A stretch of 64,000 bases of DNA. Source: Thermoplasmata archaeon (lineage in GTDB: Archaea; Thermoplasmatota; Thermoplasmata; RBG-16-68-12). The DNA lies in assembly GCA_035636315.1 (NCBI GenBank), contig DASPZJ010000021.1:1667-65666 (forward strand), in the 5' to 3' direction. Below are positions 5,399-35,853 of this stretch, in pieces (the first letter of the stretch is position 1; each line of letters begins with the position of its first letter). The notes under the pieces are model-generated. The model did no database searches. It saw nothing but the letters and a program-made list of their open reading frames with translations, and had not been told where the DNA came from. A program made the translations under genes and the position numbers.

Positions 5399-8300
5399 TT
5401 GCAGGAAGAGAAAGGCTGGCTCCATGCCCATTGGCGGACGGGCCTCATCCTCGTGCTGATCTTCGGCGTGGCCCTCTTCGTCCGTGTGTATTTCGTCTAC
5501 GGCCTCTCGTTGGCGACCGCGGCGCCCTCGCAGTGTGACGCGAACTACGTTCCGACATACTCCGGCGGGTCCGACTCGTACTACTGGGACCGCGCCTTAT
5601 GTTATTCCTTCCAGACCGGCAAGGACCTCGGGACCGACCGGATGCTGAACTACCCGGTGAGCTTCCCGAATCCGAGGCCCCCCCTCTTCCCGTGGTTCTC
5701 CCTACTCGTCGGCCGAGTCCTTGCCCCGCTCTTCAACAATGCCTGGGACGCCGTCTACTTCGTGTTCCTCCTCTCGTCGGGCTTGTTCGGGGCGCTCATC
5801 GTGTTCCCGACGTATGCCATGGGCAAGGAGGCGTTCGGCCGGAAGGCCGGGTTGATCGGCGCGCTCCTGATCGCGATCAGCGTCGGCAATCTTCAGAGGA
5901 GCAACTCGACGGACGCGGACCATGACGCGTTCACCCTCTTCTTCGTCGTATCGACGTTCTACTTCTTCCTCCGCGCTCTCAAGACGATGAAGGGCCGGCG
6001 CTGGGTCGAGAACTGGTTCCAGCGGGAGTCGATTTCCGCCGGGTTCGGCGGGTTCTTCCGAGAGAACCGGACGAGCGTCCTCTACGCCTTGCTGGCGGGC
6101 CTCTGCGTCACCGTGATCGCGCTGGCATGGCAAGGCTGGGCGTATGTCAGCGTGATCCTGCTCGTCTGGTTCGCCGCGGAGATGTTCGTCGATCGCTTCC
6201 GCAACGAAGACCCGATGGGCGCGTGGATCCTGTTCACGATCGCCCTCGCGACGCCGATCCTCCTCGCGTTCCAGTGGTACTACGTGCGGAACAACATACG
6301 CGTCTGGTTCGACGTCCCGGCGTACCTCTTCCTCGCGTCGATCGTCGTCGGCTTCGCCTTCACCGTCACGCGCGACTACCCGTGGACCCTCGTGATCCCG
6401 AGCACGCTCATCGCCGGCGCCGTCGGCCTGGCGGTCGGCGTCGCCGTGAACCCGACCCTCGCGAGCGCCTTCGTCACCGGCGCGGGCTACTTCATCCAAT
6501 CCAAGCTCGTCACGACAATCGCAGAGGACCAGGCGCCCGGGATGTCCCAGCTGATCCTGAGCTTCGGCCTCTTCACGTTCGGCATGAGCCTCCTCGCGAT
6601 CGCGTACATGCTGTGGCAGATCCCGCGGCGGCGCGAGCCCGCGTACCGGATCGCAGTGATCTGGACGTTCGTCGCCGTCTTCATGGCGATCACCGCGGCG
6701 CGGTTCATCTTCAACGCTTCCCCCGCGTTCGCGATCGCCGCCGGGTATGCGATCGACCTGGTCCTCGTCCGGGCGGACTTCGCGGGCATGCGGCGCACGT
6801 ACCGCTCGCTCGCGGAGGGCAACTGGCGCAACGCCGTTCGGAAGTCCCTGAAGGTGCGGCACGTCCTCGCCGCCCTCGGCGTGGTCTTTCTCGTCCTCGT
6901 GCCGAACGTCTGGTTCGGGCTCGACGCGGCGATTCCGTTCGAGCTGAAGGCGCAGTACGACCGACAGGTCGCCTCGACCCTGCCGTCGTTCCTCCGCGCC
7001 CCGAGCTACAACCCGAGCAGCAACAGCCCATTCTACTTCGGGGCGTTCGGGTACGCACTGCCGAAGCCGACCGACTACTATCCCGCCGCCTGGACGTGGT
7101 TCCGCACGCAGGACGCGGACGAACCGCCGGAGCTACGGCCCGCGTACCTCTCGTGGTGGGACTACGGCTTCGAGGCGGTCGACCGGGGCGCCCATCCGAC
7201 CGTCGCGGACAACTTCCAGAACGGCTACGCGCTCGCCGGCCAGTTCATCACCGCGCAGAACGAGACGCAAGGCATCGCGCTGCTCGCGGTCCGCCTCATC
7301 GAGGGCGACTTCCGGGCGCACAGCCTCACGATCGGACCGGAGGTCCGGGACATCCTGACGGCGTACGGCATCTCGGCGGACACCTTCGCCGCGGTCCTCG
7401 GCCATCCGAACGTCTACGTGGCCGTCGTACTCGCGGACCCGGTGACGTACGGCGTCTGGGACTCGAACATGCATCCGCTCAACGCGCAATACATCCTGCT
7501 GTCGCACCTCCTCACCGCCCGCTTCGGCGAGGAGCGGATGGTCGACCTGTACCACGCCCTCCGGGACGCGACGGGCACGGACATCGGCTACTTCGCGGTC
7601 GACTCGCGCTTGTTCCCGATCAACGCGCAGAACACGGGCATCTTCTACGCGCCCGTGAAGCTCTCGGATCACCGGGTCATCCAGCTGGCGGACGGCCGCG
7701 TCCTCGCGCCCGACTTCTTCCAGATCTTCGTGAACACGACCCGGGCGACGAACATCCAGATCCAGTTCCTGCAGCCCGGGGACCAGGTTCGGTCCTCGCG
7801 GATCGCGTACCAGCCGGCCTTCTACAATTCGATGTTCTACCGCGCGTACGTCGGGTACTCTCCGACGGAGCTCGGCTTCCCGAACAACCCCGCCATCCCG
7901 GGACTCGATCCGGGGATGCAGTCGTTCCCACCGGTGCCCGCGTGGAACCTGACCCACTGGCGGGTCGTCTATCGTACGTCGTACTACAACCCGTACCTGG
8001 ACGTGTCGAACCACACGGACGCGTGGCAGGCGATGAACTACCTCGACGCGCAGAAGAAGCAGGCGGACATCCAGGCGGGGAAGATCAAGGGGACCGCCGA
8101 CCTTAGCACAATCAGCAGCATCGCGAGCGGCGTCGTCTTCTTGCGGTACTACGACGGCGCTTGGGTCAACGGGACCGTGTCGGCGGACTCCGTGCCCCTC
8201 GCGGGCGTGAACATTACCGTGACGGACGAACTCGGCACGCCGCACTACCGGACCGCGACGGATGCGAGCGGGCACTACAGCGTCCTCGTGCCCTTCGGCA

Positions 8301-11300
8301 ACATCACGATCACGGCGTCCGTCGGGAGACCGTCGACGAACATGGTCGGGACTCGCACCCTCGCGACGGCCACCCTCGCGGTGTCCGAGGACCAGGCGAT
8401 GCGCGTGCCCGCCGACTCCGACGGCGACGGCGTCCCGGACTGGATCATGACCCGGGACCTGCACGTCCCCGCGCACTCGGAGAGCGGCACGCTCTACTTC
8501 GACCTGGACCGGAACAGCGCCTTCCAAGGGGGCGACGTGGTCCTCCCGGGCGCCGTCCTCACGTTCACGGACAAGGAGTTCCCGTATCAGCGGACCGTCA
8601 CGAGCCGGCCGGACGGCTCCTTCACGGTCTCGACCTTGCCGCCCGGGACGTACGCCCTCACCGTGCAGGCGAACGGACGGACGGTCCGTGCCGCCGACGG
8701 CACGATCGGGACGGCGGACGTGACGGCGAACGTCGCGGTTCCTTATGCGGGCATAAAGGGCCTCGCGACCTCAAGCCTCGGCGGATCGGTCGCGGGCGCG
8801 ACGATCGACGCGGTCGATGAGACGAACGGGACGACGTTGCGCTTCACGGCGGGCAGCGACGGATCGTACGCGCTGCGACCCTTGATGGCGGGGAACTACA
8901 CCCTCACGGCAGCGTCCGGCAATCTCGCATCGAATCCCACCCTCGTGCGCGCGGCGAACGTCGACGTCTGGCTCAACCTGACGCTCCGGCCATCGGGCAC
9001 CGTGGCGGGCACGACGACCGTCTTCGGGACGGCCCGGCCGTTCGCCAGCCTCGAATTCCAGTCCGCGATGGATCCGTCGATGGTCCGCACGGTCACGTCG
9101 GACGCGTCCGCCCGATACGCGATCCGCCTTCCGGCGGGAGAGTGGTTCGTCAGCGGACGCTCGTACGACGGCACGACGCTCTACGCGACGTTGGGGCGAG
9201 TCCTCGTTGCCGCAGGTGCCACGAGCTCCCTCGACATCATGTTCGTCCAAGGCGTCCGGGTCACGGGCACCGTCTTCGATCCGAATCCGGCGGTCCGGAA
9301 TCCGCAAGCCGCCGTGGCCTTCGCGAACGGCGCAGGCCAGCGGTGGCTCACCACGAGCGGGACCGGTGGCTACCTCGCGCTCCTGCCCGTAGGCACGTAC
9401 GACCTCCAGGCGTTCAACGCCGTCGCGGCCTCGTTCGGGTCCATCGCCCTGCTTACGAGCCAGACGGTCGACATCCGGCTGGTCAACGCCTCGGAGGCGG
9501 TCGGGGGTTCCGTGTACCGCGACATCGACGGAAACGGGGCGCTCAATCCGGGCGAAGCGATCGCCGGCGCGCGCATCGCCCTGACGGACGACACGGGGGC
9601 GCACGTCTCGCTGACGACGAACGCGACGGGCGGGTTCTCCGTCCCCCTCTTCGGGAACCACACCTACGCAGGCTCCGTGTCCGCCGCAGGGTTCGAGACC
9701 CGCGCGATCCCGGCGTCGTCGCCGGCGAGCCTCCGAACGCTCTTGCCGATCGCCCTCGTCCCGACTCCGGTCGCCGTCCAAGGGAGCGTGGTCCTGAACG
9801 GCGCCCCGCTCCTGAACCGACCCGTCACGGTCCGCGCGGTCGCGATCGGCGAAGGCGCGGTCACGCAGACGACCCTCACGGACTCGAACGGCGGCTACGG
9901 CTTCCGCCTCGTCCCGGGGACGTACGATCTCCTCGTCGACGAGAACGTCTCGACGACTCGGGACTGGCGTTACCAGAACGCGGGATCGGACGGCATCGAG
10001 GTGTCCGTCGCCCAGGCGTCCCTCGGCTACGACATCGCGATCGTCACCCGCACCCGAGTGACGGGGAGCGTCACCTTGTCCGGGGTCCCGCAGTCCGCAT
10101 CGCTGTCCTTCGACGGCCCGGAGCACCGCACCGCGGAAGCGACGACGGCCGGGTTCGAGGTCTACCTCGTGCCCGGATCCTACGCCGTCTCCGGGAGCAA
10201 ACAGATCGTCCCGGACCGGTACTCGTTCATCTCGACCGCCACGGTGCCTGCGGCGAACCTCACGTACGCGCTCGTGAAGGCGACTCGCGTGGCCGGACAC
10301 GCGCTGTTCAACGGCGCGGGCGTCGTCGGGCCCATGCCCGTCTCGTTCGCGCGCGCGGAAGGCGGCCGGGTGAACGTCTCGACGGATTCGGCCGGCGCAT
10401 TCGCCGCGTACCTCGTCCCGGGCAACTACACCGTCACGTTGACGGGGACCAACACGGCGACGGAGTCGGGCGCGCCGCGCTTCTACACGTACGCCTTCAC
10501 GGGCGGCCTCACGGTGGCACCGGGGGCGGCCGATATCGCGTTCAACCTGTCCGTCTCGAGAGACCTTGACAACACGACGGTCTCCGGAATCGTGAGCTTC
10601 GGCGGGTTCGGCGTCGACACGACCGTGACGTTCACCGCTCGGGGAGGCGGCGCGGTCGCCGCGACAACGTCGTCCGCGTCGAACGGCTCGTACTCGGTGG
10701 GCCTCGCGCCGGGCACGTACGACGTGTACGCAGCGCGCTCCCTCGGAAGCGCCGTCTCGTTGCTCCGGATCACCGTTCCGCACGCGGCCCAGGACACCCG
10801 GAACATTCCCCTGACGAGCGGGTTCATCCTCTCCGGCGTCACGACGAACGCGCAGGGCGCGCGGACGTCCGCCTCGATCGCGATCCAGTCCGCCGCCGTC
10901 CTCGACCTGACGTCGGACGGGAGCGGGTCGTACTCGACCGTCCTGCCGGCGGGCGTCTACGCCGTCTCGGCGACGAAGACGGGCACGGAGAACGGGATCT
11001 CCGTGACGTACCAGACGGCGACCTCGGTCGCGCTGCAGTCGGACACGGTCGCGAACCTCGCCCTCGAGAAGGTCGTCTCGCGCTCCGTGGTCCTGTCGTG
11101 GGACGGGTCCCAGCGGCAGACGATCTCCGCCGGCTCGTCGGTCACCTACACGATCGTCGTGCGCAACACGGGCAACGTCGCCGACACCTGGTCGCTCTCG
11201 GGCCGTCCGGCCGACTGGGAGGTCTCCTTCGTCCCGTCCACGGTCTCGCTGAACTTCGGGACCTCCGGCACGAGCGCGGCGGTGGTCGTCACGCTCACGA

Positions 11301-11902
11301 GCCCCGCGGACGCCCTCGTGGACCACGGCACGATCACCCTCGTCGCAACGTCGACGACGGACGGCACGACCCAGGGCAGCGTCGACCTCCAAGTCGACAT
11401 CGTCCGAACCCGGGGCCTCTCCCTGTCCCTCGACCCCACCTCGGGCGTGTTCGACGGCCGCTTCCTGAACTATACGCTCACGATCACGAACTCCGGAAAC
11501 GCCGCCGAGACGGTCAACGTGGAGATCACGAACCCCGATGACCTCGCGGCGAACGGCTGGATCGCCCGGCTCGGCACCACGGGCGGGGCGGCGACCGACA
11601 TCCGCCTTTCGGGCGTCTCGGTCCCGGCGAACTCGACGACGAAGGTGCGCCTCCAGTCGCAATCGTCCGGCGGCGCGAGCGGCGCGACCGTGATCGTCCG
11701 AGCGTCCGCGCAAGACTCGATGGCGGTCTCCTCGACGGGTTTCTTCACGCTCCAGATGCCGGTCCTCGCCACCGGCCCCATCACGGTTGGCGGGCCGAAC
11801 ATCGCCCGCGAAGCGCCGCTCAACCTGCAGCTCCTCGCGGCCGTCGTCGCCGCCGTGGCGGCGGTCGGAGCGGGGCTCTTCCTGACCCGCCGGAGGCGGT
11901 GA
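5399..11902 (+). CDS. aglB: Archaeal oligosaccharyltransferase AglB (STT3 family) fused to ~10 CarboxypepD_reg-like beta-sandwich repeats and a C-terminal TM anchor (2167 aa)
   Basis: Multi-TM N-terminal region, GGSDSYYWDRA loop motif, WWDYG catalytic motif (LSWWDYGFEAV). The C-terminal ~1250 aa contain repeated G.V.D..G.P..GA.V...T.T...G.Y units with many N-x-S/T sequons. Ends with LLAAVVAAVAAVGAGLFLTRRRR*. TTG start. Confidence 0.9.
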   Translation: MQEEKGWLHAHWRTGLILVLIFGVALFVRVYFVYGLSLATAAPSQCDANYVPTYSGGSDSYYWDRALCYSFQTGKDLGTDRMLNYPVSFPNPRPPLFPWFSLLVGRVLAPLFNNAWDAVYFVFLLSSGLFGALIVFPTYAMGKEAFGRKAGLIGALLIAISVGNLQRSNSTDADHDAFTLFFVVSTFYFFLRALKTMKGRRWVENWFQRESISAGFGGFFRENRTSVLYALLAGLCVTVIALAWQGWAYVSVILLVWFAAEMFVDRFRNEDPMGAWILFTIALATPILLAFQWYYVRNNIRVWFDVPAYLFLASIVVGFAFTVTRDYPWTLVIPSTLIAGAVGLAVGVAVNPTLASAFVTGAGYFIQSKLVTTIAEDQAPGMSQLILSFGLFTFGMSLLAIAYMLWQIPRRREPAYRIAVIWTFVAVFMAITAARFIFNASPAFAIAAGYAIDLVLVRADFAGMRRTYRSLAEGNWRNAVRKSLKVRHVLAALGVVFLVLVPNVWFGLDAAIPFELKAQYDRQVASTLPSFLRAPSYNPSSNSPFYFGAFGYALPKPTDYYPAAWTWFRTQDADEPPELRPAYLSWWDYGFEAVDRGAHPTVADNFQNGYALAGQFITAQNETQGIALLAVRLIEGDFRAHSLTIGPEVRDILTAYGISADTFAAVLGHPNVYVAVVLADPVTYGVWDSNMHPLNAQYILLSHLLTARFGEERMVDLYHALRDATGTDIGYFAVDSRLFPINAQNTGIFYAPVKLSDHRVIQLADGRVLAPDFFQIFVNTTRATNIQIQFLQPGDQVRSSRIAYQPAFYNSMFYRAYVGYSPTELGFPNNPAIPGLDPGMQSFPPVPAWNLTHWRVVYRTSYYNPYLDVSNHTDAWQAMNYLDAQKKQADIQAGKIKGTADLSTISSIASGVVFLRYYDGAWVNGTVSADSVPLAGVNITVTDELGTPHYRTATDASGHYSVLVPFGNITITASVGRPSTNMVGTRTLATATLAVSEDQAMRVPADSDGDGVPDWIMTRDLHVPAHSESGTLYFDLDRNSAFQGGDVVLPGAVLTFTDKEFPYQRTVTSRPDGSFTVSTLPPGTYALTVQANGRTVRAADGTIGTADVTANVAVPYAGIKGLATSSLGGSVAGATIDAVDETNGTTLRFTAGSDGSYALRPLMAGNYTLTAASGNLASNPTLVRAANVDVWLNLTLRPSGTVAGTTTVFGTARPFASLEFQSAMDPSMVRTVTSDASARYAIRLPAGEWFVSGRSYDGTTLYATLGRVLVAAGATSSLDIMFVQGVRVTGTVFDPNPAVRNPQAAVAFANGAGQRWLTTSGTGGYLALLPVGTYDLQAFNAVAASFGSIALLTSQTVDIRLVNASEAVGGSVYRDIDGNGALNPGEAIAGARIALTDDTGAHVSLTTNATGGFSVPLFGNHTYAGSVSAAGFETRAIPASSPASLRTLLPIALVPTPVAVQGSVVLNGAPLLNRPVTVRAVAIGEGAVTQTTLTDSNGGYGFRLVPGTYDLLVDENVSTTRDWRYQNAGSDGIEVSVAQASLGYDIAIVTRTRVTGSVTLSGVPQSASLSFDGPEHRTAEATTAGFEVYLVPGSYAVSGSKQIVPDRYSFISTATVPAANLTYALVKATRVAGHALFNGAGVVGPMPVSFARAEGGRVNVSTDSAGAFAAYLVPGNYTVTLTGTNTATESGAPRFYTYAFTGGLTVAPGAADIAFNLSVSRDLDNTTVSGIVSFGGFGVDTTVTFTARGGGAVAATTSSASNGSYSVGLAPGTYDVYAARSLGSAVSLLRITVPHAAQDTRNIPLTSGFILSGVTTNAQGARTSASIAIQSAAVLDLTSDGSGSYSTVLPAGVYAVSATKTGTENGISVTYQTATSVALQSDTVANLALEKVVSRSVVLSWDGSQRQTISAGSSVTYTIVVRNTGNVADTWSLSGRPADWEVSFVPSTVSLNFGTSGTSAAVVVTLTSPADALVDHGTITLVATSTTDGTTQGSVDLQVDIVRTRGLSLSLDPTSGVFDGRFLNYTLTITNSGNAAETVNVEITNPDDLAANGWIARLGTTGGAATDIRLSGVSVPANSTTKVRLQSQSSGGASGATVIVRASAQDSMAVSSTGFFTLQMPVLATGPITVGGPNIAREAPLNLQLLAAVVAAVAAVGAGLFLTRRRR

Positions 11903-12674: not shown

Positions 12675-13283
12675 TCACGCGGACTCGATGAGCCAGACGT
12701 CCGAATGGTTACGGAGCAACATCCCGAGCTTCGTGCGCGAGATGCCCGCCCGCTTCAGGAGCGGTTCGAGCTTTGCATCCTCCGGAAGCTGCACCTCGCC
12801 GTCGACCCATGTGGTCGCGACCGGCTCGTACCGGACGACGCGATCGCCGACGCGGACGCGAGCCGCGGCCGCTTCCCGGAAGGTGTGAAGCACGACGTGG
12901 ACCGACGTGACGGCCGTCGGCCGGACCTTGTGATTGTAGTACTGGGCGACTTCCCGGTGGACCGGAGCGAAGGCGCCGACCCGCTTCGCGTACTCGTGCC
13001 AACCGCGTTCGAACGGCGAGCGCAAGGTCGACATGCAGTGCTCCGTGACGGGCCGGACCTCCTCGAAGGTCGAGAGGATCGACTGGCCCGTCGTCAGGGC
13101 GGACAGGAACTCGGGCCACGTTCCGTATTCCTCCTTCGGCATCGAGTTCGCGAGGTTCCTCGCGAGCGAGACGAGGTAGTTGTTCAGCCCGCTCACGCCG
13201 ACCTTCGCGGCGATGTCCTCCAGGAACAGGTGCGTCGCGATCTCGACGAACGGGTTGCTCTCCGGGATCCGGGATTCCGCCAT
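12675..13283 (-). CDS. Hypothetical protein, paralog of 13285..13905 (V4R/COG1719-like, tentative; Cys residues lost)
   Basis: Similar throughout to the upstream neighbour (L..D..K.G..G...NLA..M.KE.Y..W..F; V..YN..V..AV...V.H.FRE). Last gene of the KaiC-like operon. Confidence 0.5.
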   Translation of the reverse strand: MAESRIPESNPFVEIATHLFLEDIAAKVGVSGLNNYLVSLARNLANSMPKEEYGTWPEFLSALTTGQSILSTFEEVRPVTEHCMSTLRSPFERGWHEYAKRVGAFAPVHREVAQYYNHKVRPTAVTSVHVVLHTFREAAAARVRVGDRVVRYEPVATTWVDGEVQLPEDAKLEPLLKRAGISRTKLGMLLRNHSDVWLIESA

Positions 13284-13284
13284 G

Positions 13285-13905
13285 CTACCGGTCTCCCTTG
13301 ATCCGCGCGCCGCGCATCACGAGGGCGTAGACGCACTCGTAGTTCCGGAGCAAGGCCCGGACGTGGTCCTCGTTGATGTTGACCTGCGCGACGTTCTTCG
13401 GGGAGATCTTCGCCTCTCCGCTCCAACCGCGGGTGGCGAGGAGGTAGCATGCGAGGGAGTTCCCCGAGACGGTCACGTTCTTCGCAATCTCCTCCCGGAA
13501 CCGCTCGTGGAAGACGCAGAAGTTGCACACCGCGATGTTGTGGACGTTCTCGTTGTACTCGCTCGTCACCGCGCGGTCCGCGGGGCTCATCCGGCCGACC
13601 GCGAAGCGCGTGCGGAAAATCGTTGGGACGTAGCAGCACTGCCGCATCGCGTACAGATAGCCGACGACGTCCCCGTCGACGTCCGTGACGGCCATGTCCG
13701 TGAGCGGCGTGACCTCGCCCTCGATGCTGAAGGCCGTGCGGCCCTCGCGCACCGCGACGTTGAACGACGTCCACCCGAGGTACGCCTCCTTGCCCATCCG
13801 GCTCGCGAGGTTGTCCCCGACCCGCTGCCAGAACTCGACCACCCCATCGGCGCCCGCCTTCTCGATCATGTCCTCGATGAGGGAGGCGAGGGCGACGTCG
13901 ATCAT
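13285..13905 (-). CDS. V4R-domain-like protein (COG1719-like, tentative)
   Basis: ~200 aa with a Cys-rich C-terminal half (CCYVP, CNFCVFHERF, ACYLL, YECVY), consistent with 4-vinyl-reductase-type small-molecule-binding domains. Family call by eye only. Confidence 0.45.
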   Translation of the reverse strand: MIDVALASLIEDMIEKAGADGVVEFWQRVGDNLASRMGKEAYLGWTSFNVAVREGRTAFSIEGEVTPLTDMAVTDVDGDVVGYLYAMRQCCYVPTIFRTRFAVGRMSPADRAVTSEYNENVHNIAVCNFCVFHERFREEIAKNVTVSGNSLACYLLATRGWSGEAKISPKNVAQVNINEDHVRALLRNYECVYALVMRGARIKGDR

Positions 13906-13926
13906 GCGGGATCTCCGATCATGGGA

Positions 13927-14715
13927 TCACACGAACGAGCTGAGGACCTGTTTCAGGTAGGCGCGCCATTCCTTCTCCGCCTTCACCGCGACGGTGTCGC
14001 CGCGCAAGTCCCGCAGCTTCTCGACCAGAATCGTCACGAAGCGGTCCCAGTGCCCGGCAGTCATGTACGACGCGGTCGTGCCGACCTCGTTGTACGCCAT
14101 CGGGACGATTTCCTGGAGCGGACCGGGGCCCACGAGGGCCCCGAGCCGGGACTGGAGGAACTGCGCGATCTCCTTGTTCTTCTTGAACTCCTTCGTCTCG
14201 CCGAATTTCTCGACGAACAGGATGCGGGTGAGCCGCTTCAGCTCGCCCGCGACCGCCTCGTCGTACGTGGCGAGGACCTCGGGCGTGATCGGCTTCGACT
14301 CGAAAAGATGCCGCACCACGATTGATGTCTTCACGATGTTCGCGAGGACGCCCTGCATCTTCGTGATCTCCACGGGCTTCGTCGTCAAGAAGACGAGGAA
14401 CGCCCGGTCGCCTACGCCCGAGATGATGATCGTCCCCGCCTCGAACTGCTGGACGGACATCATCATGTTCTGGCCGCCGAGCTGGTTGCAGATGTGGGCG
14501 AGGTTCCCCTTCAGCAGATTCAGGAGCCGGTACTGTCGCGGATCGAGCCGGTTCGGGATCGAGGACGAGAAGATCCTGCCGTCGACGCCGAGGAACATCG
14601 CGATGTTGAGGTCGTTCTCCTCGCGCGCCCGCTTGAGTTCGGTCTCCAGGAGATGCTTCAGGTGGCCGACCGTCTCGGCCCCCATCGTCTTGTCGACCGT
14701 GCCGGCGTAGGGCAT
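13927..14715 (-). CDS. Roadblock/LC7 (MglB-like) domain protein with a ~130-aa C-terminal extension
   Basis: NIAMFLGVDGRIFSSSIP ... MMMSVQQFEAGTIIISGVGDRAFLVFLTTKP matches the roadblock fold pattern. Immediately downstream of the KaiC-like ATPase. Confidence 0.55.
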   Translation of the reverse strand: MPYAGTVDKTMGAETVGHLKHLLETELKRAREENDLNIAMFLGVDGRIFSSSIPNRLDPRQYRLLNLLKGNLAHICNQLGGQNMMMSVQQFEAGTIIISGVGDRAFLVFLTTKPVEITKMQGVLANIVKTSIVVRHLFESKPITPEVLATYDEAVAGELKRLTRILFVEKFGETKEFKKNKEIAQFLQSRLGALVGPGPLQEIVPMAYNEVGTTASYMTAGHWDRFVTILVEKLRDLRGDTVAVKAEKEWRAYLKQVLSSFV

Positions 14716-15606
14716 CTAGCCGCCCCGCTTGAGCCCGTACGAGTTGAACAGGATCTGGAGGGCTTCCTCGGGGGAGTAGTCGTAATCCCAGCTCCGTTGC
14801 ATCTTCTTGATGCGTTCGACGACGCGCGCGGGCGCCTTCATCGCCTCCGCGGTCTTGATCGCCTCGTCGAAGGTCTTCGCGTGGCTCCGCGTCTGTTCCT
14901 CGGGAATCGGACTCGGGCTGGCGCGGACGACGATGCCGACCCCGCGGGCGAAGAGATACGGATAGACGCCTTCGCCGTGGTGGGAGCCCCGCATCTTCAG
15001 GAGCTTGAGCGTGCGGTTGAACGCGCCGCCCACCGGGTAGTACTCGAGGTGGATCGCGCCGTCGGACAGGTAGATTGGCAGGAGGACATCCTCCCCGATC
15101 GTCTCGCCGGGCTTCGCGTGCTCCTCGACGGTGCACAGCACGACGCCGAGCTCTTTGAGCGTGTAGAAGAGCTTTCCAATCAGCTCGCGCTGCTCGAGCT
15201 TCTCCGCCGTCGCCCAGATGACCGGCGTCATCGGGTCGATCACGACGCGCGTGGCAATGTTGTAGTCCGCGCGGGCCTTCACGAGCTGCGGCAGCTGCTC
15301 CTCGATCATCTTCTTGAAATTGCGGCCTTTGAGGTGGATGAAGAAGAGCGATTTCTCGTAGTACTTGCGCATGTCGAAGCCCATCAGGTCCGCCTCGCGC
15401 ATGATCTGCTCCGGCGGCTCTTCGAGGGTCACGTACAGGGCCTGCTCGCCCTGCTCGATACCTTCCATCAGGAACTGGATCGCGAACGTGGACTTGCCCG
15501 TCCCGCTCGACCCCAAGATGACGACCGTCGACTTGGGCCAGAATCCGCCTTCGATCAAATCGTCGAGTCCCGGGATCCCGCTCGCCACTTTCTGTACGTC
15601 GGCCAT
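14716..15606 (-). CDS. KaiC-like/RecA-superfamily single-domain ATPase (COG0467)
   Basis: GIPGLDDLIEGGFWPKSTVVILGSSGTGKSTFAIQFL (Walker A), then LYVTLEEPPEQI and a Walker B region. ~60-aa C-terminal extension. Confidence 0.8.
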   Translation of the reverse strand: MADVQKVASGIPGLDDLIEGGFWPKSTVVILGSSGTGKSTFAIQFLMEGIEQGEQALYVTLEEPPEQIMREADLMGFDMRKYYEKSLFFIHLKGRNFKKMIEEQLPQLVKARADYNIATRVVIDPMTPVIWATAEKLEQRELIGKLFYTLKELGVVLCTVEEHAKPGETIGEDVLLPIYLSDGAIHLEYYPVGGAFNRTLKLLKMRGSHHGEGVYPYLFARGVGIVVRASPSPIPEEQTRSHAKTFDEAIKTAEAMKAPARVVERIKKMQRSWDYDYSPEEALQILFNSYGLKRGG

Positions 15607-15731
15607 GGTGGTCTCCCCCTCGAGGCTCTCCTCCGGAGGAGGCGAAGCCTCGCTAGGTGGAATGCGCGATTCGATGCCCGCGGCCTTTTAAGTGAATTCC
15701 GACTCCGAAATCGACCCTGATAACAAACGGG

Positions 15732-16367
15732 TCAGAGCTTCTCGCGGACCGCGTCGAGTTTCTCCGCGAGATCCTGGCTCCGTGCGGCGACCGCGACTTC
15801 GCCGCGGGTCTTCTCGATCAGGCTGCGCGCGACGTCCTGTTTCCGCTTCAGGGCGACGAGCGCGGTCGGGTAGTCGAACCGCATCAGAGCGTCGAGGATC
15901 CGCTCCATCATCTCGAGGAACGAGGACGCGAGCTTGACGTCGCCGCGCCGCAAGTGCTCGAGAGCGAACCGCCGCAGCTCGCCTACGACGTCGCCGAGGC
16001 CGAGGAGGTACGCGGTGTCCGTCACGCCGAGCTCCTTGGGACTCGGTAACGGCTCCGCGTCCAGGATCGAGTGGACGAGGAACGCCTCGCACGCCTCCTG
16101 CATCGCGTTCTCGACGATGCCCGTGTGGTAGAGGTCCGGATGGTCTTGCAGGAGGCTCTTGAGCTTGAGGACCTCCTCTCGCGTCTCCTGGAGGGCCGCC
16201 GCGACATCGTGGCCGCGATGCATCCCTTGGATGACGCTACCGCTGAGTCGCGCGATCGTTCGGGATGACTTGATCGTGAGTTCACGGACCTCGTCTTTCT
16301 CGTCGAGACGGGACTCGATATGCGAGATCACGTCGTCGAGGTTCTTCACGCCGCGCGCATGGCCCAT
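15732..16367 (-). CDS. Translin-family protein
   Basis: EKDEVRELTIKSSRTIARLSGSVIQGMHRG and YLLGLGDVVGELRRFALEHLRRGD parallel the human translin motifs (EQDIREEIRK...LQGVHQG; YLLGVADLTGELMRL...GD). Confidence 0.7.
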   Translation of the reverse strand: MGHARGVKNLDDVISHIESRLDEKDEVRELTIKSSRTIARLSGSVIQGMHRGHDVAAALQETREEVLKLKSLLQDHPDLYHTGIVENAMQEACEAFLVHSILDAEPLPSPKELGVTDTAYLLGLGDVVGELRRFALEHLRRGDVKLASSFLEMMERILDALMRFDYPTALVALKRKQDVARSLIEKTRGEVAVAARSQDLAEKLDAVREKL

Positions 16368-35734: not shown

Positions 35735-35853
35735 CGCCGAGGGGGAGACTTTCAGGCAGCCGTCACATGAGCGGCGGGAGCCATTTGAACTCCCGAGGAC
35801 TTGCGCCCACCAGCTCTCCAAGCTGGCGCCCTACCGGACTAGGCGACCTCGGC
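35735..35853 (-). tRNA. tRNA-Ser (anticodon GGA) with a long variable arm and an apparent 35-nt intron within the T-loop (position 59/60 or 60/61)
   Basis: Manual cloverleaf on the minus strand: acceptor GCCGAGG/CCTCGGC; D-arm GCCT-AGTCCGGTA-GGGC; anticodon arm CCAGC-TTGGAGA-GCTGG (U33, GGA, purine 37); V-arm GGGC-GCAA-GTCC; T-stem GGGAG + TTCAAAT. The matching CTCCC-CCTCGGC-G resumes 35 nt later (35748..35782 is the putative intron). Discriminator G73, then an oligo-T tail. TATA-like tttatta sits ~30 nt upstream (35883..35889). Confidence 0.6.

Follow-up and report, generated by a model that had tools for sequence, protein, structure and literature searches.

A conserved KaiC-like ATPase operon of Thermoplasmatota, with a Roadblock fusion and a pair of paralogs of an unnamed domain family, as a putative regulatory module

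A central role in archaeal signalling is ascribed to KaiC-like ATPases, but very few of their partners have been defined. Four tightly packed, co-directional open reading frames (A, B, C, and D) of a soil Thermoplasmata archaeon, one of which encodes such an ATPase, lie within the 64,000-nt stretch of DNA analyzed here (the window). The proposal that KaiC-like ATPases are signal-transduction hubs in archaea is attributed to Makarova, Galperin & Koonin (2017, mBio; as cited in PMC5847659). All four co-directional open reading frames of the original prediction are present on the minus strand, exactly where it had placed them:

14716..15606, minus strand: gene A, 296 aa, single-domain KaiC-like RecA-superfamily ATPase
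13927..14715, minus strand: gene B, 262 aa, Roadblock/LC7-fold domain plus helical C-terminal domain
13285..13905, minus strand: gene C, 206 aa, intact member of the family here called X
12675..13283, minus strand: gene D, 202 aa, degenerate paralog of gene C
15685..15692, minus strand: possible archaeal TATA-like box CTTAAAAG, ~82 nt 5' of the start of gene A (direct reading)

Read from the sequence, the A/B, B/C, and C/D spacers measure 0, 21, and 1 nt, with TAG abutting ATG at the A/B junction. GGAG occurs in the 21-nt spacer 5' of gene C, a G-rich Shine-Dalgarno-like GGGGGAG lies 5' of the gene A ATG, and the candidate TATA-like box falls within the 125-nt spacer after a translin-like gene. 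A sigma-70 promoter and terminator scan of the locus gave no match, the model being bacterial and not applicable to archaea, and no RNA element was found near the operon with Rfam. Each of the four products has hundreds of homologs; they are encoded by real genes rather than chance open reading frames.

Its profile match and motifs identify gene A as a P-loop ATPase of the KaiC family whose catalytic motifs are intact, in agreement with the single-domain KaiC/RecA-superfamily assignment made originally. The Pfam family PF06745 matches residues 7-229 over profile positions 1-228 of 231 (E 2.8e-45; 154.9 bits, gathering cut-off 26.6), and the translation reads a Walker A motif (G32-SSGTG-K38-S39), a tandem Glu pair (E62-E63), and a Walker B-like V121-V-I-D124, followed toward the C-terminus by a helical extension of ~65 aa. 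The Walker A, tandem Glu, and Walker B residues are kept across 72 orthologs. Scores for all named NCBIfam KaiC subfamilies were under their cut-offs, including KaiC_arch_3 (125 bits, under 249), while sequence matches in the PDB include the KaiC CI domain (5jwo, E 1e-23), PH0186 (2zts, E 1.5e-23), PH0284 (2dr3), and SSO2452 (2w0m), the last three of which are structurally known single-domain KaiC-like proteins.

The cyanobacterial KaiABC system, from which the idea of a small partner reading the state of the ATPase is taken, resembles this locus in that gene A is homologous to both KaiC CI and CII (E 1e-23 per domain). However, gene A has one domain rather than two, it scores 80.8-123 bits with the circadian KaiC models (TIGR02655 / NF006799), whose cut-offs are 408-546, and no KaiA or KaiB family member was found among the operon products. 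Nothing at this locus points to oscillation.

Gene B had been read as a Roadblock/LC7 domain fused to a C-terminal domain of no known family, and it divides as follows:

14299..14679, minus strand: N-terminal Roadblock/LC7-fold domain, residues ~13-139
13939..14283, minus strand: C-terminal all-helical domain, residues ~145-259, six helices (AF2 secondary structure)

Gene B has no Pfam match, Roadblock/LC7 PF03259 included, and no NCBIfam match at E<=1. Nevertheless, gene B carries a Roadblock/LC7 fold, as its N-terminal domain shows the alpha-beta-beta-alpha-beta-beta-beta-alpha order superposable on MglB, LC7, or LAMTOR, its best structural matches are MglC and MglB, and hhalign pairs the domain with two PF03259-positive proteins at 85% (E 6e-6). 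The C-terminal domain (~115 aa; AF2 pLDDT 78-92 over residues 181-260) has no sequence match in Pfam, NCBIfam, or the PDB and none by hhalign to the other operon families; searching the PDB with profiles built from the B, C, and X families likewise returned nothing credible. Small GTPases are the usual clients of Roadblock proteins, as in the MglB/MglC-MglA and Ragulator (LAMTOR)-Rag systems. The present operon differs from these in that the NTPase beside gene B is a RecA-type KaiC-like ATPase and not a Ras-superfamily GTPase, none of which is encoded within the operon at the 80 loci compared, and in that gene B has the extra helical domain.

The two ~200-aa products, claimed from the outset to be mutually homologous, with a Cys-rich upstream copy and a downstream copy that had lost its cysteines, proved to be just that. 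Genes C and D share 27% identity by BLASTP (E 2e-15), their family profiles align by hhalign at 99.7% (E 4e-26), and they contain six and one Cys, respectively. In the family alignment, the invariant features of gene C are C90, C127-N-F-C130-x-x-H133, R137, C191, and a DVDGD hairpin, with the central motif at the start of a helix:

13507..13527, minus strand: C127-N-F-C130-V-F-H133 motif of gene C, N-terminus of helix 128-141, invariant columns

Together with C90 and C191, this motif is the predicted metal-binding core of gene C, for which the AF2 model has pLDDT 80 and pTM 0.80 and no Pfam, NCBIfam, or PDB match was obtained. In the combined C/D alignment, gene D has C127 replaced by T, C130 by H, H133 by L, and C191 by D, and it has lost the DVDGD hairpin while keeping the N-terminal helices and the LLRN motif. 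Genes C and D are thus paralogs, and on the alignment only C retains the Cys/Cys-His/Cys constellation.

Both proteins belong to an unnamed domain family of ~190 aa with the signature C…C..H..R…C, here called X, which is covered by no Pfam or NCBIfam model and matches no sequence in the PDB. Its defining features are a conserved Cys following strand 2, (P)FC..H..R where a helix begins, and C.Y in the final strand. Gene C contains C90, C130, H133, R137, and C191, all kept in the distant X family too, and aligns with distant X at 99.9% by hhalign; gene D does so at 99.9% as well, yet all of its Cys/His ligands are missing. Elsewhere, X is fused to a KaiC domain in P0439 (KaiC at 5-226, X at 271-424) and to a wHTH of the DUF7347 type in P0454. 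Its genes are found directly after a short KaiC-like gene and before DUF7343, directly after Robl_LC7, after Robl_LC7 and V4R/MetOD1, or ahead of V4R, and one Roadblock-X pair has an Arf/Rag-like GTPase nearby. These KaiC+X and wHTH+X fusions, and the recurrence of X beside Roadblock, V4R, and KaiC-like genes, lend independent support to the link seen in the operon.

The further suggestion that C and D are V4R-like found no support from sequence. Neither product matches V4R (PF02830) in Pfam at E<=1, 42 distant X members scanned with Pfam at E<=10 yielded no V4R match and a single one to MetOD1 (E 0.042) as the only V4R-clan signal, and hhalign in local mode against the genuine V4R family (34 operon-linked proteins) assigned C, D, and X a probability of <=0.4%, the same as negative controls. 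The V4R/TRAPPC3 (Bet3) ligand-binding domains include those of PoxR, DmpR, and Thor-TRAPPC3 (PMC10933270). In Foldseek searches, TRAPPC3 and DmpR ranked at the top with weak, non-significant matches. It is doubtful, but conceivable, that C and D are small-molecule-binding domains of the V4R (4-vinyl reductase / Bet3-TRAPPC3) superfamily that have diverged past sequence recognition. The V4R/TRAPPC3 fold consists of four helices and a four-stranded sheet that is anchored to a helix by a Zn site; gene C is also Cys-rich, with a putative metal site joining sheet to helix and a compatible order of secondary-structure elements in its model, and a true V4R gene belongs to the ancestral form of the operon (see below). 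On the other side, comparisons of sequences, profiles, and structures gave no significant match for C and D, and the C…C..H…C pattern of gene C is unlike that of the operon's own V4R protein.

Gene order was compared at 80 species-level genome loci, counting as "with room" those with enough sequence for the test. C is preceded by KaiC and B in all 53 loci with room and followed by D in 75 of 75, while all four genes are co-directional at 70 of 70; the neighborhood conservation proposed as a check on the original prediction is borne out, as each Thermoplasmatota locus long enough for the comparison shows the KaiC-B-C-D order. Across the phylum, KaiC and C both average 74% pairwise identity, with minima of 59-63%. 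A second, seven-gene form (type 2) encodes V4R, KaiC, Roadblock, a coiled-coil/wHTH protein, X, X', and a GNAT-like protein. V4R (PF02830, E 3e-8) was found in 33/35 and p174 in 36/36 of these loci, and B and C stand 1078-3046 nt apart, most of these loci having a detected coiled-coil gene in that gap. The coiled-coil protein is long and variable with a weak MarR-type wHTH at its C-terminus, and its HMM matches a DUF7343 protein and a TrmB-GTPase fusion. The seven-gene operon would include a recognizable putative ligand sensor (V4R) and a putative DNA-binding output (wHTH). The four-gene form of the window's clade is probably the reduced core of an ancestral seven-gene operon; within the 64-kb window, a search for V4R, the coiled-coil protein, and p174 gave one marginal p174 fragment (E 0.003) and nothing else.

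The surroundings are also partly conserved. Genes for a CARDB protein and for a giant STT3/AglB protein adjoin the operon tail to tail in all type 1 and in 9/33 type 2 loci; the latter come from several lineages, and most type 2 loci have lost the adjacency. Synteny extends to the wider region, including folD, purD, translin, and the genes that follow.

Taken together, we favor, with a probability of roughly 55%, a co-transcribed, Thermoplasmatota-wide regulatory module built around the KaiC-like ATPase, whose mechanism we infer as follows. The KaiC-like protein, probably a hexamer, would act as a nucleotide-driven switch, on which B may dock via a Roadblock dimer to read or modulate its nucleotide or phosphorylation state, by analogy with MglB/Ragulator on small GTPases or KaiB on KaiC. 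C and D would form a heterodimer in which intact, metal-tethered C (Zn or Fe-S) may serve as sensor or effector, with D as a scaffold partner that does not itself sense, and in the four-gene form the output partner would be encoded outside the operon. The fusions of X to KaiC and wHTH domains, its genomic company, the conserved gene order, and the lack of an anti-phage defense signature argue for this reading. Like the archaeal KaiC hubs, gene A has a single KaiC/RecA-like domain with intact motifs in an operon with putative sensor/adaptor proteins; unlike theirs, its partners are a Roadblock fusion and two X paralogs instead of KaiB-like, DEATH-like, MEDS, PAS, or two-component proteins. Against a regulatory module, 74% mean identity of KaiC and C is unusually high for a signaling accessory and more typical of a housekeeping machine, the four-gene form has no recognizable DNA-binding or enzymatic output, with none found in the window, the operon has no small GTPase, and one sampled X gene (P0415) has no Roadblock, V4R, or KaiC-like neighbors.

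The high and uniform conservation, the presence of the core in every locus with room, the neighboring CARDB and STT3/AglB genes, and the many invariant polar residues that give C an enzyme-like look could instead point to housekeeping, such as ATP-driven assembly or quality control of a metal cofactor, the cell envelope, or the N-glycosylation apparatus, with C as a scaffold or enzyme that binds a metal or cluster. We consider this unlikely, as the CARDB-STT3 pair is convergent to the operon and therefore not co-transcribed with it, most type 2 loci no longer show the adjacency, which, with the whole region syntenic, may simply be inherited, and the X fusions and the pairing with Roadblock and V4R better fit a sensor or adaptor. 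A spatial or scaffolding system, in which an NTPase and Roadblock platform sets localization or polarity as in MglA/MglB/MglC or Ragulator, with C, D, and the coiled-coil protein as structural parts, is very improbable. Although the MglC and MglB matches of gene B, the long coiled-coil protein of the ancestral operon, and the Arf/Rag-like GTPase near one Roadblock-X pair are in its favor, the operon itself is without a small GTPase, the window's clade does without the coiled-coil gene, and the wHTH-like end of the coiled-coil protein suggests DNA binding. Anti-phage defense was rejected, since PADLOC-DB returned no defense system, gene A giving a weak P-loop match to mad8 (E 2.9e-6) and B, C, and D nothing.

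Read as a regulatory module, the locus supplies a conserved set of KaiC partners, namely a Roadblock fusion and an intact/degenerate X pair, and raises the questions of whether a Roadblock domain regulates a RecA-type ATPase rather than a GTPase and whether the Cys/His site of X is a metal or redox sensor. In eukaryotes, TRAPP- and Ragulator-type platforms combine Bet3-like and longin/Roadblock subunits that regulate an NTPase. It is a quite unlikely, speculative extension that X is a highly diverged V4R/TRAPPC3-like metal-tethered ligand-binding fold and that operons of an NTPase with Roadblock, V4R, and X are prokaryotic counterparts of TRAPP/Ragulator; if so, the platform NTPase would be KaiC-like here and a small GTPase elsewhere. 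X members also occur inside multidomain proteins of Hodarchaeales and Thorarchaeota (Asgard), and neither Roadblock nor KaiC could be assigned to the N-terminal ~300 aa of the Hodarchaeales fusions. As the Roadblock and V4R/TRAPPC3 folds are likewise present in Asgard archaea, the module bears on the pre-eukaryotic assembly of NTPase-regulating platforms.

The four genes A to D, which encode a KaiC-like ATPase (A), a Roadblock-domain protein (B), and two paralogous members of an unnamed Cys/His domain family defined in this analysis (X; genes C and D), form a conserved and tightly linked module in which an intact KaiC-like ATPase and a Roadblock-fold protein are accompanied by an intact/degenerate pair of X proteins. 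The four co-directional minus-strand ORFs of the original prediction are present with boundaries exactly as predicted, and the operon and its flanks are laid out as follows:

15692..15685, minus strand: AT-rich candidate element, CTTAAAAG, in the 125-nt spacer upstream of A
before the ATG of A, minus strand: G-rich Shine-Dalgarno-like candidate element, in the same spacer
14716..15606, minus strand: gene A, ORF of 296 aa
13927..14715, minus strand: gene B, ORF of 262 aa
13285..13905, minus strand: gene C, ORF of 206 aa
12675..13283, minus strand: gene D, ORF of 202 aa
11904..12674, plus strand: CARDB gene (small protein), convergent, its stop abutting that of D
5399-11902, plus strand: STT3/AglB-type gene of 2167 aa, upstream of the CARDB gene

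As read from the sequence, the stop of A and the start of B are contiguous (TAG ATG), the B-C spacer measures 21 nt and contains GGAG, and C and D are separated by 1 nt; this tight spacing suggests that A-B-C-D may be translationally coupled. The 125-nt spacer separates A from a translin-like gene (15732..16367). On the other side, the 2167-aa protein consists of an N-terminal STT3/AglB oligosaccharyltransferase domain fused to >1300 aa of beta-sandwich repeats (CarboxypepD_reg/SdrD_B/NOMO-like), with a hydrophobic C-terminal tail.

To assess conservation, loci were scanned in one genome per species, and relatives of C were found in 166 genomes, 80 of which are listed, with labels that are Thermoplasmatota-type or the generic "archaeon". 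The proposed operon held up in its gene order: among these 80 listed loci of 166, C has KaiC and B upstream wherever there is room (53/53), D follows C in all 75 loci with room, and all four genes are co-directional in 70/70. Mean pairwise identity across the phylum is 74% for both KaiC and C, 59% for D, and 52% for B. The closest relatives of the window among the loci listed are soil Thermoplasmata MAGs, with 98-100% protein identity.

Two forms of the operon were observed. Type 1 (33 listed loci, including the window) has four genes, with translin before and the convergent CARDB-STT3 pair after them. Type 2 (37 listed loci) is the extended operon of sister lineages (L003 1939-7801; also L004, L063, L074, L084, and ~30 more loci), with the order V4R, KaiC, B, coiled-coil protein, C, D, and p174, and occurs in DHVE2/Aciduliprofundum, SG8-5 Proteinoplasmatales, and MAGs labelled Methanomassiliicoccales. 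Its V4R protein is PF02830-positive (33/35 loci) and likely carries a C-terminal extension; its coiled-coil protein is long and highly variable (366-691 aa as extracted) and ends in a weak MarR-like wHTH; the weakly GNAT-like, 174-aa p174 is present at 36/36 loci; and the B-C gap spans 1.1 to 3.0 kb. In DHVE2 only, a gene termed p95 comes first. Every type 1 locus has the CARDB-STT3 pair arranged tail to tail with the operon, as do 9/33 type 2 loci, which come from distant lineages. The type 2 loci nearest the window's clade have the same flanking gene order (purD, translin … CARDB, STT3), which makes reduction of the seven-gene operon the simplest origin of the four-gene one. Elsewhere in the 64-kb window, no homologs of V4R, the coiled-coil protein, or p174 were found, save a marginal p174 fragment (E 0.003).

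Gene A, originally described as a single-domain KaiC/RecA-type ATPase, matches PF06745 (E 2.8e-45, residues 7-229), and its translation retains an intact Walker A (G32SSGTGKS39), tandem Glu62-Glu63, and Walker B-like VVID124. In a PDB sequence search, A comes closest to KaiC domains and to PH0186, PH0284, and SSO2452, which are single-domain proteins of archaea. On sequence grounds, A is thus confirmed as a single-domain KaiC-like ATPase, and, since it does not reach the cut-off of any named KaiC subfamily in NCBIfam, it is assigned to a distinct KaiC-like subfamily.

Genes C and D are mutually homologous, as predicted (BLASTP E 2e-15; hhalign 99.7%). In the family alignment, C90, C127-N-F-C130-x-x-H133, R137, and C191 of C are invariant, and a DVDGD hairpin is also present; the predicted loss of cysteines from D is borne out by the combined alignment, in which D lacks all of these Cys/His ligands as well as the hairpin and retains an LLRN motif and the helices of its N terminus. 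The suggested V4R-like character of the pair, however, was not upheld at the sequence level: neither protein matches PF02830 in Pfam, and profiles of C, D, C+D, and the wider family reached a probability of ≤0.4% in hhalign against a genuine V4R family built from 34 related loci, the same as unrelated controls. A V4R-like fold is nevertheless possible from structural modeling. Foldseek top matches are nearly all TRAPPC3/Bet3 and DmpR, and are weak (E 0.25-5, TM 0.22-0.28). In Thor-TRAPPC3 and PoxR, a Zn tether joins sheet to helix (PMC10933270), and both the secondary-structure order of C and the placement of its cysteines (following strand 2, where a helix begins, and in the last strand) are compatible with such a tether.

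A C+D profile searched against 1.84 billion representative proteins gave 108 matches, including the divergent ~190-aa set that constitutes X, which aligns with C and with D at 99.9% each (hhalign) and shares the pattern C(PF)…(PF)C..H..R…C.Y, corresponding to C90, C130, H133, R137, and C191 of C. X has no family or relative in Pfam, NCBIfam, or PDB sequences. It is fused to a KaiC domain in protein P0439, to a wHTH (DUF7347) in P0454, and forms the C terminus of 490-510-aa proteins in Asgard archaea (P0456, P0460, and cluster members; Hodarchaeales, Thorarchaeota). The ~300-aa region ahead of X in P0456/P0460 has no family match and starts with a degenerate P-loop-like GDFNDRKT; at the locus of one of these Asgard X fusions (L088 707-2185), the adjoining gene encodes a fusion of TrmB-HTH with a Ras/Arf-like GTPase. 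The gene contexts of X include:

short KaiC-like gene, X, DUF7343
Robl_LC7 and X with zero gap, with GNAT and Arf/Rag GTPase nearby
Robl_LC7, V4R/MetOD1, X
X, V4R
weak DUF2226, Robl_LC7, X

One examined X gene has no such neighbor. These fusions and neighborhoods make X a recurrent partner of wHTH domains, Roadblock, V4R, and NTPases of the KaiC-like type, and indicate that it works with them.

As a whole, we favor, with a probability of roughly 55%, a KaiC-centered switch with a Roadblock adaptor and a C-D sensory/effector pair. ATPase A would act as the nucleotide-driven switch, B as its Roadblock-type regulator or adaptor, and a C-D heterodimer would offer a sensory or effector surface that depends on a metal or on redox state; in type 2 operons, V4R may add small-molecule input and the coiled-coil/wHTH protein DNA-binding output. 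The main alternative, a housekeeping or assembly role, is consistent with the unusually high conservation and the repeated adjacency to the AglB locus, but it seems rather unlikely given that the operon runs convergently to that locus and that the adjacency is gone in most type 2 loci. A defence role is also unlikely (PADLOC negative).

The idea of KaiC-like ATPases as hubs is already established (Makarova et al. 2017, cited in PMC5847659), and archaeal Roadblock and V4R/TRAPPC3 proteins have been described (PMC10933270). No description of this module was found in the searchable literature, and the neighborhood may be listed in the supplements of Makarova et al. 2017. Three aspects appear to be new: (i) a defined partner set of a KaiC-like ATPase, (ii) the X family, including its fusions and occurrence in Asgard archaea, and (iii) the pairing of a Roadblock protein with an NTPase of RecA type instead of a small GTPase.

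Small genes flank some Roadblock-X pairs in other archaea and may be further module components, namely, downstream genes of 169 and 137 aa without family assignment (L091 8636-9579) and an upstream gene for a weak DUF2226 protein (L098 4134-4640). In the window (GC ~65%), the gene for the translin-family protein (15732-16367, minus strand; Pfam E 2.8e-11) shares synteny with the KaiC operon across type 1 loci and part of the type 2 loci. PRK14562 models of NCBIfam match this protein as well, and their title, "haloacid dehalogenase superfamily protein", seems misleading as a family name. The sole RNA gene detected in the 64 kb is a tRNA-Ser(GGA) (35768-35849, minus strand).
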